The position numbers and the translations under genes were made by a program. This document shows, piece by piece, positions 43,486 to 48,001 of a stretch of DNA of 64,000 nucleotides. The first letter of the stretch is position 1, and the number at the start of each line of letters is the position of its first letter. The DNA comes from Myxococcota bacterium. Lineage in GTDB: Bacteria; Myxococcota_A; Polyangia; Nannocystales; Nannocystaceae. The notes under the pieces are model-generated. The model did not search any database. It saw only the letters and a list, made by a program, of their open reading frames with translations, and was not told where the DNA came from. The DNA is taken from the NCBI GenBank assembly GCA_039028615.1, contig JBCCHT010000005.1, forward strand, positions 64,001 through 128,000, given 5' to 3'.

Positions 43486-44007
43486 ATGGAGCGGGTCGGT
43501 CTGCACGGTCTCGACGAACGAGGGGTGGCCACCGCCGCCGTCGCGCTGGGAGCGGTGCTGCAGCCCGGTGACGTGCTGTTGCTGGAGGGTCCGATGGGGG
43601 CGGGCAAGACCACGTTCACGCGGGCGCTGGCCGAAGGTCTTGCTGTACGTCGGCCCGAACGAGTGCGAAGTCCCACGTACAACCTGTGCCTGATCCACGA
43701 CGGGCCGCGGCCGCTCGTGCACGTGGATCTCTTTCGTCTCGCGCAGACCGACGAGGGCTCTGCGCCGGTCGGCGAGGCGGCCTTCGAGTCGCTCGGGCTC
43801 GATGCGCTGGGCGAAGGGCTGGGCGGCCCCGAGCCGGTGTTGGTCGTCGAGTGGGCAGACCTGTGGGCGGCCCCACCGGCCGATCACCTACGGATTCGAC
43901 TGCAGCCCGAGCCCGACGATCATCAGCGCAGAACATTGATCGTGAACGCTCACGGGTCGCGAGCCGCCGAGCGACTCGCGGCTTGGCAACCCGCCGCGCC
44001 GGCCTGA
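43486..44007 (+). CDS. tsaE: tRNA threonylcarbamoyladenosine biosynthesis ATPase TsaE
   Basis: LEGPMGAGKTTF, SPTYNL, HVDLFRL, VEWAD; alternative start 43396. Confidence 0.93.
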   Translation: MERVGLHGLDERGVATAAVALGAVLQPGDVLLLEGPMGAGKTTFTRALAEGLAVRRPERVRSPTYNLCLIHDGPRPLVHVDLFRLAQTDEGSAPVGEAAFESLGLDALGEGLGGPEPVLVVEWADLWAAPPADHLRIRLQPEPDDHQRRTLIVNAHGSRAAERLAAWQPAAPA

Positions 44008-44393
44008 TTCGGTTCGGGTGGGCGCCCTCGAGGCGTGGTGTCGGGCGGGCGCCCGGGGCCCCGACGATGGCGGAATGCCCCGATCTCGGCGCTCGGTCCC
44101 GCCCTGGGCAATCCCTGCACACGGCGTGGGCCGGGCCACGCAGCGTCAGGATCCCGCCGCTAGATCTCCGGTTCGACAGGCCCGTTTGGGGCGCGAATTT
44201 CGGGGACGCTGGACGATTTTCGCTTTTCAAGCCCGTCTGGGCGGGTTTATCGTCCGGGCGAGCCGAGCGCTCCGCGGCCCCCGCGGAGCACGCAACCGCG
44301 CTCCCCATCCCAAGAATCACCGCCAGGGTTCCTCCCGGACCCCGGCATCCAAAACACCACGATTAGCGTCAACTCGCTCAGGATCAACAGACC

Positions 44394-44588
44394 ATGGCCA
44401 AAGCGTCCAAGCCCAAGGAAATCGTCGTCGTCGGCTCGAAGGTAAAGGAAGTCATCAAGGAAGCTGGCCTCCGCAGCGACGGCGAGCTCGTCCAAGCCGT
44501 TTCCGACAAGGTTCACGAGCTTCTCGAGGCCGCCATCGAGCGCTGCCAGAGCAACAACCGCAGCACCGTGCGTCCGCACGACCTCTAG
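44394..44588 (+). CDS. Bacterial histone (single histone fold, 64 aa)
   Basis: VVVGSKVKEVIK, long central helix, C-terminal R-C-x-x-N-x-R-S-T-V-R-P-H-D-L (RxTxxxxD signature); AGGA RBS; downstream hairpin. Confidence 0.88.
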   Translation: MAKASKPKEIVVVGSKVKEVIKEAGLRSDGELVQAVSDKVHELLEAAIERCQSNNRSTVRPHDL

Positions 44589-44601
44589 GCGACACGCCAA
44601 C

Positions 44602-44633
44602 GCCGAGCGAGGACGAGCCGTCCTCCGCTCGGC
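44602..44633 (+). terminator. GC-rich hairpin downstream of histone gene
   Basis: GCCGAGCG-AGGACG-agc-CGTCCT-c-CGCTCGGC; no U-tract. Confidence 0.55.
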
Positions 44634-44783
44634 ACCCGAGCCAGGCCGTCACGCGAACTTCCGCGTGGCGGCCTCGTTCGTTCCCGGGCGTTGTCCGTGC
44701 AGGCCCGGTCGCACCCCGGACGCACGCCACAATCGCGGTTTGCGGTGTATCTGGGAGGTGTCCAGGGCGTATCCTTGGCAGCG

Positions 44784-45500
44784 ATGAACCTCCGGGACGC
44801 CGTGCTGAAAGCCGCCAGCAACTACCTCCGTACTCATCCCGAAGAGCTGTCGCGGATCCTCCGCAACGCGATGGGCCTGCGGTTTGGTGTTCCGATCGCC
44901 GGGTTGCGCTGGCTGGCCGCCAACGGCGGAGACGGTGGTCCCGAAGACGTCGAGATCGACCCCTGTCCGCCGGGCATCCGCATCGGCGCCACGGTCGAGC
45001 TGATGGGCACCAACGTCCGCGCCGTCACCATCCTCTACATCGAGCGCATTCGGATGTCGGCCGAGGAGCTTCGGCTCGAGGTTCGCCTGGAAGACACGAA
45101 GATGACGGTGCTCGGCGATGCCGAGTCCCCGGTGGCGGCGCTCATCAAGTCGGGCGCGCTCGACCTCACCAAAAGCGGCAATCTCGCGGCGCACCTGCCC
45201 GGGCTGTCCCGGCTGCTGGGCGAGTCCACGGGCAACCGGCTGGTCATCGATCTCATGAAGCACCCCGTCCTGGGCAAGAACCGGGTGGCCCGTCGGGTGC
45301 TCGGCTTGGTCTCCTCGTTCGTCACCGTGCACGGGGTCGAGTCCGACGAGGGGCACCTGGACGTCTTGATGCGGGCCTTCCCCCGCGGCATGGGCGGAGC
45401 AGCCCGGGCCGTGCGGGACCACGTGTTCACCGATGGCCCTCCGTGGATTCGGGGGATGCTTCCGGGCCGGAGCAACGGCGAGCCCCGTCGCGGGTACTGA
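44784..45500 (+). CDS. Conserved hypothetical protein
   Basis: Protein-like composition from ATG 44784; TATCCT 8 nt upstream; no motif recognised. Confidence 0.7.
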   Translation: MNLRDAVLKAASNYLRTHPEELSRILRNAMGLRFGVPIAGLRWLAANGGDGGPEDVEIDPCPPGIRIGATVELMGTNVRAVTILYIERIRMSAEELRLEVRLEDTKMTVLGDAESPVAALIKSGALDLTKSGNLAAHLPGLSRLLGESTGNRLVIDLMKHPVLGKNRVARRVLGLVSSFVTVHGVESDEGHLDVLMRAFPRGMGGAARAVRDHVFTDGPPWIRGMLPGRSNGEPRRGY

Positions 45501-45691: not shown

Positions 45692-45766
<75 letters not shown>

Positions 45767-45956: not shown

Positions 45957-47156
45957 TCAGATGACGACGGCGAGTCGGGTCTGACCCACGGAGAACTCGT
46001 CTTCACCGCCGAGTTCGACGGGCGCCTCGATGACCGCATCGTTGACCCGCACGGTGCCGTCGCCGGTCAGCGGTCGCAGGTGCGGGCGGTTGGGCACGCC
46101 GCTCCACTCGAGCACGGCGTGGACGCGGGGCACGGCGTCGTCGCGCAGCTTGATCTCGCAGCGTCGGCCGCTGCCGATGCGGTAGCTGCCGGGTAGGAAC
46201 AGCTGCTCCACGACCTCGTCGTCGGGCGTGAGCATGCGGAGCTTGGCGGCGACCGGGATGTCCATGTCGCGGTGCAGCACCAGGCCCAGGACGTTGGCGA
46301 AGGCCCCCGCGTTGGGCGGCCGGGCCTCGGGGTCCTTGTCGAGCGCCCGGGCGATGCCGCTGACCAGCGAGTCGGGCAGATCCTTGCAACCCTCGCACTG
46401 CCGGATCGGCGTCGGAGGCGTCTGCGCGTGGGCTTTGAGCCACTCGGTGGGGTTGTGGCGCAGCTGCTCCTTGAGCTCCAGCAAGGGGATGCCGGGGAAG
46501 AAGGGGCTGCGACCGGACAGCAGCTCGAACAGGATGGTGGCCAGGCTGTAGACGTCGCTGGCCGGGGTGAGCACGCGGGTGCGCAGCTGCTCGGGCTGCG
46601 AGTAGTGCGGCGTGCCCACGACCATGTGGTTCTCGGTGGCGTTGACCCCGACCACCGGGCTGCCGTCCCACGATCGCGCGAGACCAAAATCGAGCATTTT
46701 GATCTTGCCGTCGCGCTCGATGAAGATGTTCTCGGGTTTGACGTCGCGATGCACCACGCCCATGGCGTGGGCCTCGGCCAGACCGAGGCACGCCTGGTGG
46801 ATGATCGTGACCGCCTGCGCAGGGTGAAGCGGTTTGCCGAAGTCGTGCCAGTCGTCGAGCGAGCAACCGCTGAGCAGGTCCATCAACAAGTAGATGTGAC
46901 CGTCGGGTCGCAGGCCGCAATCGAAGGTGCGGACGACGTGGGGGTTGGTCAGCGAGCGGAGGATCGTGATCTCGCGGAGGGCTCGCTGCGCTTCTTCGCC
47001 CGAGTGCACGGGCTCGCGAGTGAGCTTGAGGGCGAGGCGCTGGGGGTAGCCGGGCGATTCGACTTCATAGACGCGAGCGAACGAGCCGACGCCCAAGACA
47101 CCATGGATCTTGATGTTGCCCGCGTAGACGTCCCCGGGCTGGAGATCGAGCGGCAT
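45957..47156 (-). CDS. Cytoplasmic Ser/Thr kinase with C-terminal FHA-like domain
   Basis: GVGSFARVY, ALK, HRDVKPEN, DFG, GTPHYSQPE; tail YRIGS...RVHAVL...VRVN...VGQTRL. Confidence 0.92.
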   Translation of the reverse strand: MPLDLQPGDVYAGNIKIHGVLGVGSFARVYEVESPGYPQRLALKLTREPVHSGEEAQRALREITILRSLTNPHVVRTFDCGLRPDGHIYLLMDLLSGCSLDDWHDFGKPLHPAQAVTIIHQACLGLAEAHAMGVVHRDVKPENIFIERDGKIKMLDFGLARSWDGSPVVGVNATENHMVVGTPHYSQPEQLRTRVLTPASDVYSLATILFELLSGRSPFFPGIPLLELKEQLRHNPTEWLKAHAQTPPTPIRQCEGCKDLPDSLVSGIARALDKDPEARPPNAGAFANVLGLVLHRDMDIPVAAKLRMLTPDDEVVEQLFLPGSYRIGSGRRCEIKLRDDAVPRVHAVLEWSGVPNRPHLRPLTGDGTVRVNDAVIEAPVELGGEDEFSVGQTRLAVVI

Positions 47157-47221
47157 GTGCAGTACCAGTGGCTCCCGGCCGCGAACTTACCATCGTTTTT
47201 GCGCGTCGGCCTTTTGTCGCC

Positions 47222-48001
47222 ATGTCTGATCCCTCGGTCCTCGTTCCTCTGTCTAGCCTGGCCCCCACGGAGCGAAACGCCCGGCTGGCTCCGATCCGCA
47301 TGGTCGCCACCGACGTGGACGGAACCCTGACCCGGGGTCGTGCCCTCGATCCGGCCGTCGTTCGCGTCATCGCCGCGCTGACGGAGGCGGGCGTTCGGGT
47401 CCTGCCCATCAGCGGTCGGCCGACCGGGGAGGTGCTCGGATTGTGTCGCTATCTGCCGGGAGTCGACCATGCAATCTCGGAAAATGGGCTGTTCGAGGTC
47501 GTGCCCGATGTCGCCCCGCGGTGGCTGTTGCCCCCGACCGATCGGCAGGCACTGATGGCGGTCGGCGACCGACTCAACGAGGAACACGGCGCGGGCTTGG
47601 TGCTCACCGCCGACCATCCCTTCCGACTCGGCGACGTCGCCTACGAACGTGAAGGTCGCGACCCCCAGGTGCTCACGGAGTTGCGCACCAAGGCGGCCGA
47701 CCTCGGGGTGTGCCTGGTGTGGTCGAGCGTGCACATCCACCTGACCCCGCGGCCGCCCGACAAAGGCGAGGGCTTGCTTCGTTTTGCGGCGGACCATGGT
47801 CTAGACCCCGCGACGATTCTCACGATTGGCGACGCGCCCAACGACGAAGGGTTGTTCGTCGGCGGTCGCTTCGGAGTGACGGTGGGCACAGCCGACGTAC
47901 CGTCGCAGCGCGACGCCTTCGAGTCCCTACCGACTTATGTCACTGACGAACGAGAGGCCGATGGCTTTCTTCAGGTAGCGGCCGCGCTCCTCGACCGGTA
48001 G
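47222..48001 (+). CDS. HAD superfamily (IIB-like) hydrolase
   Basis: DVDGTLT, SGR, SENG, DKG, IGDAPND. Confidence 0.9.
   Translation: MSDPSVLVPLSSLAPTERNARLAPIRMVATDVDGTLTRGRALDPAVVRVIAALTEAGVRVLPISGRPTGEVLGLCRYLPGVDHAISENGLFEVVPDVAPRWLLPPTDRQALMAVGDRLNEEHGAGLVLTADHPFRLGDVAYEREGRDPQVLTELRTKAADLGVCLVWSSVHIHLTPRPPDKGEGLLRFAADHGLDPATILTIGDAPNDEGLFVGGRFGVTVGTADVPSQRDAFESLPTYVTDEREADGFLQVAAALLDR

Follow-up and report, generated by a model that had tools for sequence, protein, structure and literature searches.

Does the 64-codon open reading frame that follows tsaE in this Nannocystaceae genome encode a bacterial histone and, if so, to which class does the protein belong and is the gene expressed as a unit of its own? 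The window, meaning the whole 64,000-nt stretch of DNA that was analysed, corresponds to C5:64001-128000 of a 12.27-Mb genome in 94 contigs. A sequence-only reading of the locus had proposed a stand-alone and monocistronic gene for an abundant histone that might belong to the face-to-face (FtF) tetramer class. The features of the locus, in window coordinates, are as follows.

43486..44007, + strand, tsaE (Pfam TsaE, E 8.5e-25), the conserved upstream neighbour, given as context and outside the unit
44225..44253, + strand, promoter-like site (-35 TTTCAA at 44225-44230, 17-nt spacer, -10 TATCGT at 44248-44253)
44267..44293, + strand, stem-loop early in the predicted 5′ UTR, from folding and from near relatives with paired changes
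44380..44383, + strand, Shine-Dalgarno sequence AGGA, with the ATG 10 nt further on
44394..44588, + strand, histone gene (type A, tsaE-linked; alpha3-truncated histone assigned to the face-to-face class), ATG start, 64 aa plus stop
44602..44633, + strand, first 3′ hairpin, from folding
44637..44685, + strand, second 3′ hairpin, with a 13-bp core at 44643-44674 and a weak T-rich tail
45692-45766, tRNA-Pro(cgg), downstream of the histone gene

The open reading frame at 44394-44588 is a real and strongly conserved bacterial histone gene. It lies on the same strand as tsaE, whose end at 44007 is separated from the histone ATG by 386 bp, in agreement with the roughly 385 bp of upstream non-coding DNA first described, and the ribosome binding site recognised in that reading is present as an AGGA whose AG is invariant in 19 aligned upstream regions. 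The protein opens with Lys-rich sequence, continues with V-V-V-G-S-K-V-K and a long central part and then has R56-x-T58-x4-D63, which fits the RxTxxxxD signature that had been pointed out, and the stop comes one residue after D63, the protein ending at residue 64 directly after the DL pair as had been stated. In 22 non-independent pairwise comparisons with relatives, differences at the three codon positions number 130/64/394 and codon changes are synonymous in 345 cases vs 159 non-synonymous ones; by this measure of substitution the reading frame is under purifying selection. Many long spurious reading frames occur in the region on both strands, which is the one point in favour of a chance frame in GC-rich DNA that is not a gene, a reading of negligible probability. 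It is ruled out by 245 homologs at E <= 1e-3, by the purifying selection and by conserved synteny, and the confident fold and conserved expression signals described below also count against it.

The 64-aa protein is predicted by AlphaFold2 (pLDDT 82.7) to adopt the histone fold of alpha1, loop, long alpha2, loop and alpha3, with helices at residues 14-23, 32-53 and 61-63 and a disordered N-terminus. Alpha2 comprises 22 residues and alpha3 is confined to the three residues 61-63. Foldseek ranks HLp of Leptospira perolatii first (9qt0_A, TM 0.84/0.96, rmsd 0.7 Å), the nine top matches are all HLp, HBb or HTkC, and eukaryotic and archaeal histones then follow at E > 0.1. The identification of a histone gene from the sequence is thus upheld by fold and structural matches, and the short Lys-rich N-tail that had been described is likewise seen, being disordered in the model. 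In a single-sequence search of PDB the best match is again HLp (9QT0, E 1.8e-10), with HBb / Bd0055 of Bdellovibrio (8CMP / 8FVX) at an E value of about 1e-4 (1.2e-4) and HTkC (9F2C) at 4e-3, which bears out the resemblance to Bd0055 and Leptospira-type histones. With a profile of 110 single-domain homologs the E values are 2.7e-23 for HLp, 5.5e-15 for HTkC and 2.5e-13 for HBb, both solved face-to-face histones therefore ranking above the dimer histone.

Family models proved less informative. The structure search finds histones, as the sequence-only reading had anticipated, but the two Pfam models that it had named for the same check, CBFD_NFYB_HMF and DUF1931, score under their cut-offs. For CBFD_NFYB_HMF (PF00808, nucleosomal-type histones) the score is 20.0 bits against 21.4, and the nucleosomal type has an alpha3 of about 10 residues vs the 3 found here. 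DUF1931 (PF09123) reaches 17.2 bits against 21.8 and covers only half of its 138-position model. The score against DUF5805 (PF19121), a model that matches 42/110 homologs at E <= 0.01, is 24.3 bits against a gathering cut-off of 28.5, and a search of NCBIfam with the 64-aa protein returned only one meaningless match (0.059). Most database copies are named 'hypothetical protein' because no Pfam model reaches its cut-off; some databases still label relatives 'DUF1931 family protein'. A DUF1931 pseudodimer was considered and rejected on the score under cut-off, the presence of a single fold and the retention of DNA-contact residues.

Assignment to a histone class, here that of FtF alpha3 histones (Schwab et al. 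2024; HLp and HTkC), depends on the truncated alpha3 and on the residues at the predicted dimer-dimer interface. Passages of PMC11390915 define alpha3-truncated histones, with an alpha3 of 3-4 residues and a shortened alpha2, and within them an FtF subgroup distinguished by a predicted tetramer and by R and N residues (R48 and N52 in logo numbering) that are missing in bacterial dimers. The 22-residue alpha2 and the alpha3 at 61-63 correspond to this description as given in those passages. For HLp, the passages of PMC12701072 that were available list tetramer contacts between R49, S52, N53 and R55, T61, F63, of which R49, N53 and R55 are termed conserved, an RD clamp formed by R55-D62, and DNA contacts at A13, S14, K15, K17, K21, T27, G29, T56 and T57. 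The query number equals the HLp number plus 1, an alignment verified on 23 residue numbers from the same passages. On this basis the tetramer contacts in the query are R50, S53, N54, R56, H62 and L64, 4/6 being identical to HLp; all three residues termed conserved are identical (R50, N54 and R56), and the two differences are T61 to H62 and F63 to L64. The R-D clamp and the RxTxxxxD motif are represented by R56, T58 and D63. The corresponding DNA contacts are G14, S15, K16, K18, K22, S28, G30, S57 and T58, 6/9 identical to those listed for HLp with three conservative changes. Among the 110 homologs, S15, K18, G30, R50, N54, R56, T58 and D63 are each at least 90% conserved. A further residue of the interface region, Cys51 (window 44544-44546), follows the interface Arg as an R-C pair in every copy of type A and in many of those from Planctomycetota, and position 51 is Ala or Thr in type B and in HLp.

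Modelling of four copies, one of the checks suggested in the sequence-only reading, predicts a closed homotetramer of two dimers with a score of 0.89 vs 0.07 for the best control. The score mark was reached by 20/30 proteins solved as one-chain pairs and by 1/23 solved as single chains, rates that hold only roughly for a tetramer as the calibration was made on two copies. Contact agreement between runs is 94% or higher, with a partner pLDDT of 89 or more. In the model the scored copy forms a handshake dimer with one copy and touches another through residues 49-50, 53-54, 56, 60 and 62-63, contacts which, as modelled, constitute the FtF interface. The pass may reflect memorisation of the already solved HLp tetramer by the predictor, and the model shows likeness to that assembly rather than binding. 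Together with the conserved tetramer residues, it favours the face-to-face class proposed from the sequence.

The closest rival is a dimer-type bacterial histone like HBb (Bd0055), which would stay a dimer and bend DNA locally without wrapping it. HBb is also a significant match (E 1.2e-4, TM 0.80, profile E 2.5e-13), and Myxococcota_A is among the hosts of bacterial dimer histones listed in passages of PMC11390915. The same passages describe dimer histones as devoid of the two FtF interface residues, however, whereas R50 and N54 are both present here and at least 90% conserved in the family; in the sequence alignment HBb has S and D at these positions. With interface R and N in place and an assembly beyond the dimer predicted, the protein departs from the HBb type, and both the rank of the solved FtF histones HLp and HTkC above HBb in the profile search and the FtF interface built in the four-copy model weigh on the same side. 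We consider a dimer-type histone improbable. A histone-fold protein devoid of a global DNA role, for instance one that links other proteins as an adaptor or regulates locally together with its tsaE neighbour (ftsZ in the case of the paralog), would be in keeping with passages of PMC11390915 in which some prokaryotic histone-fold groups (DUF1931 and transmembrane forms among them) lack DNA-binding residues, and each of the two histone paralogs described below has its own conserved neighbour. Against such a role stand the retention of the HLp DNA-contact residues, a conserved promoter-like site and terminator of its own, a gap of 230-450 bp after tsaE, and codon use that is ribosomal-protein-like, unlike that of the neighbours (0.097 vs -0.065 for tsaE). 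This reading is very improbable.

The preferred reading, in which an FtF histone assembles into closed tetramers, binds and wraps DNA non-specifically in the manner of HLp and serves as a general nucleoid protein, is very probable. We infer its behaviour in solution, on DNA and in the cell as follows. Two chains would pair as the usual histone handshake dimer, and a closed homotetramer would arise from contact between two such dimers along the alpha2 end, loop 2 and the alpha3 of three residues (R50, S53, N54, R56, H62, D63). By analogy with HLp, the tetramer would bind DNA without sequence preference, the proposed surfaces being the start of alpha1 (G14-S15-K16, K18, K22), loop 1 (S28, G30) and loop 2 (S57, T58), and would wrap roughly 60 bp, leading to chromosome compaction. 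The short Lys-rich N-tail would remain disordered. Transcription, probably at a high level, would cover this gene alone, starting at its own promoter and ending at the tandem hairpins, and the product would be a general protein of the nucleoid together with HU/IHF, of which three family genes occur in the same genome, and with the second histone paralog.

Signals for separate expression are conserved around the gene. The promoter-like site, about 140 nt upstream of the ATG in the window, is the sole conserved block among the 19 aligned upstream regions, with T..C of the -35 and TA...T of the -10 invariant, and would place the transcript start near 44260 with a 5′ UTR of about 134 nt. Its pattern matches 28/34 type-A sequences (33 loci plus the window) at 88-147 nt before the ATG, each match being followed by a hairpin of varying sequence. 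A sigma-70 consensus scan of 43900-44900 returned no site, the conserved block being passed over because it fails the -35 rule of the scan. The hairpin of the predicted 5′ UTR recurs at the equivalent place in relatives despite differing sequence, with z from -0.6 to -3.9, except in L056, where z is +0.1 and the hairpin is no better than shuffles.

The strong 3′ hairpin reported from the sequence is present at 44602-44633, but it is one of two, the second being longer and lying at about 44637-44680. The 115 nt past the stop fold at -72.2 kcal/mol (z -6.3), a stability equalled by 0/200 shuffles. A GC-rich, long-stemmed 3′ hairpin occurs in 30/31 type-A relatives folded (32 examined), where it is usually the second of two and often has a clear T run after it; outliers are L055, with one long stem, and L039, with only weak stems. 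A consensus scan of 43900-44900 found no canonical terminator and the T tail is weak in the window, and the second hairpin is nonetheless likely, from its conserved form, to be the intrinsic terminator of the histone gene. The monocistronic organisation that had been proposed agrees with the conserved promoter-like site and with the tandem downstream hairpins in relatives.

Abundance of the protein, also proposed from the sequence, receives indirect support from codon use and from RNA libraries, the latter from one study. The codon score for ribosomal-protein-like use lies at the 99.7th percentile of 4302 long ORFs, a modest signal for a gene this short, as 2.3% of 64-codon slices from other genes reach the same score. 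The histone scores 0.097 and tsaE -0.065 against the same reference set, and neighbouring genes with similarly low GC3 have low codon scores. Contigs of 205-304 nt that are 95-99% identical to the locus were found in RNA libraries, one in each of four runs of one marine metatranscriptome study, all four wholly inside 44270-44579 and with four coding-region differences, all at third codon positions. Such contigs show neither transcript ends nor level, and DNA can occur in RNA libraries; they fit a short, separate transcript from a close relative. Contig cover was absent elsewhere in 44100-44800, which does not imply silence there. Further RNA runs (X5-X24) contain only small shares of the sampled sequence words. 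Combined, the promoter-like site, the ribosomal-protein-like codon use and the short RNA contigs fit a separately transcribed, well-expressed gene.

The gene is not confined to this genome. The closest copy among named records is that of Paraliomyxa miuraensis SMH-27-4 (97%), with further copies in Enhygromyxa salina SWB005, Plesiocystis pacifica SIR-1, Nannocystaceae bacterium ST9 and many Nannocystaceae/Nannocystis MAGs. In a sample of the family, a histone match at E <= 1e-3 was obtained in 61/61 Nannocystaceae genomes and 17/17 genera, weak cases being a match of only 41% in a genome that is 60% complete (G043) and a fragment of only 26 residues (G011). Across the phylum 77/401 genomes match, and outside Nannocystaceae nearly all of these matches are distant (27-48% identity), a single one reaching 61%. 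Beyond these, the nearest copies belong to Planctomycetota (50-62%), to one Bdellovibrionales MAG (66%) and to a few archaea (about 50%). Some Nannocystaceae genomes contain a third match to the histone fold that is far less similar (27-42% identity, E 1e-4 to 1e-9), for example at G036:C52:169303-169488, G001:C23:111260-111442 and G004:C130:9784-9960.

The gene is probably a transcription unit of its own but is not the only histone gene of its genome, which corrects the stand-alone description in part. A second paralog at G000:C4:255564-255770 (L002:1474-1683) encodes a 69-aa protein that is 78% identical and has a longer, more basic, Lys-rich N-tail; its neighbours are an ftsQ-like gene in divergent orientation and, on the other side, a convergent ftsZ. 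Copies in the family fall into two corresponding types. In 33/34 public loci type A is preceded by tsaE in the same orientation, usually with an M1 peptidase gene beyond, and type B adjoins ftsZ in 7/10 loci. Synteny with tsaE and tRNA-Pro, a check named in the sequence-only reading, thus extends across the family for tsaE, but tRNA-Pro is found in only 4 type-A loci and the 238-aa downstream gene in 5, all among the closest relatives. That 238-aa ORF (window 44784-45500, + strand), between the histone gene and tRNA-Pro, gave no Pfam match and is 85-90% conserved, limited to the five closest relatives. Just past tRNA-Pro lies a gene for a Ser/Thr protein kinase with a C-terminal FHA domain (window 45960-47156, - strand), and its position and that of a HAD hydrolase gene at 47168-48001 are kept only in the closest relatives.

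In a tree built over 70 columns from 71 sequences, from which two doublets and one fragment (3 sequences) were dropped and in which identical rows were merged, a branch with support of 91/92 separates type A from all other rows, and the Nannocystaceae rows left over, which do not resolve, make up type B. With family copies typed crudely, by higher identity to either paralog, both types occur in 27/61 genomes, only A-like copies in 28/61 and only B-like copies in 5/61, and 1/61 has no close copy. The two paralogs have nearly the same dimer and tetramer interfaces. A two-variant histone system in Nannocystaceae, with a short-tailed form after tsaE, a longer, basic-tailed form beside ftsZ and possibly mixed tetramers, is a tentative and rather doubtful proposal.

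Comparison with characterised histones places the protein nearest to HLp (PDB 9QT0, 9QT1, 9QT2; PMC12701072). The two are similar in length (64 aa vs a 65-aa chain), share the fold (TM 0.96 on the target, rmsd 0.7 Å) and have in common the RD clamp, the conserved R/N/R tetramer residues and, as modelled, the tetramer interface. They differ in that identity is about 40%, the host phylum is another, two paralogs occur in the query genome, H62 and L64 occupy the interface and the conserved alpha2 Cys51 is absent from HLp; moreover, HLp has been studied at the bench, whereas the Nannocystaceae protein is known here from sequence and models. HTkC of Thermococcus kodakarensis (PDB 9F2C) is an FtF histone with the same class and fold (TM 0.82, profile E 5.5e-15), but is archaeal and about 33% identical. 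HBb / Bd0055 of Bdellovibrio bacteriovorus (PDB 8CMP, 8FVX, 9EZZ) shares the alpha3-truncated fold, RxTxxxxD and the alpha1 lysines, but, according to passages of PMC11390915, is a dimer that bends DNA and is devoid of the dimer-dimer interface R and N. Outside Myxococcota the nearest proteins are FtF histones of Planctomycetota MAGs, which are 50-62% identical and in which the alpha2 R-C pair and the C-terminal motif are common, whereas they carry far longer N-tails rich in Lys and Arg, of up to about 25 residues.

Proteins with fused histone folds were seen in passing. In a 50%-identity library the best matches come from proteins of 140-184 aa in which two FtF-like histone folds are fused (P0121, P0123, P0124, P0127, P0129, P0135; also L102:3932-4387, from a MAG labelled Gammaproteobacteria, and L070:3938-4360, from a Planctomycetota MAG). 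They open with a hydrophobic, signal-peptide-like leader ending in A-x-A, and their predicted mature N-terminus mimics the start of the query histone. Fold 1 is 60-77% identical to the query, with the alpha1 DNA-contact motif kept and the loop-2 T often lost; fold 2 keeps the R/N/R and RxTxxxxD residues, and a Cys often follows fold 1. AlphaFold2 predicts for the L102 protein two confident alpha3-truncated folds (31-151, pLDDT about 90 or more) and a low-confidence leader. These two-fold proteins may be exported pseudodimeric histones; none was found in the source genome or the 61 family genomes, and the available main text of PMC11390915 contains no mention of signal peptides. In two metagenomic proteins, P0122 (189 aa) and P0132 (256 aa), a leader and an RRM-like stretch precede the fused FtF-like histone folds, and P0122 is named 'RNA recognition motif-containing protein' by one source.

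FtF histones in Myxococcota are already in print, in papers of 2024 and 2025 (passages of PMC11390915 and PMC12701072), and the class assignment made here is not new because both papers place bacterial FtF histones in this phylum. No paper that connects Nannocystaceae genera with histone folds turned up in our literature searches, nor did any functional histone work in Myxococcota, in line with the statement to that effect in the sequence-only reading. Nannocystaceae genus names are absent from three supplement files of PMC11390915, which are part of the set, and PMC10627809 contains none of the myxobacterial terms looked for. Within the literature passages available, a match in every sampled genome of the family, two syntenic paralogs, a conserved promoter and terminator and presence in cultured strains were not found.

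The gene itself is ordinary for its family, and its significance lies in that family. According to passages of PMC12701072, bacterial histones occur in under 2% of sequenced bacterial genomes, and only two culturable species with complete genomes, both Leptospira, are named for the bacterial FtF cluster. Bench studies of bacterial histones have dealt only with HBb and HLp, and the relatives of HLp include a pathogen. In Nannocystaceae, which include some of the largest bacterial genomes, a match in 61/61 genomes makes the FtF histone look like a core gene of the entire family of myxobacteria, with Paraliomyxa miuraensis SMH-27-4, Enhygromyxa salina SWB005 and Plesiocystis pacifica SIR-1 as cultured and harmless carriers. 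These offer a practical system in which the role of FtF histones can be studied in living cells that contain HU/IHF as well, and the 27/61 genomes with two paralogs make variant behaviour of bacterial histone paralogs testable. The two-variant system, if true, would give bacteria an equivalent of histone variants, in non-pathogenic hosts that can be cultivated.
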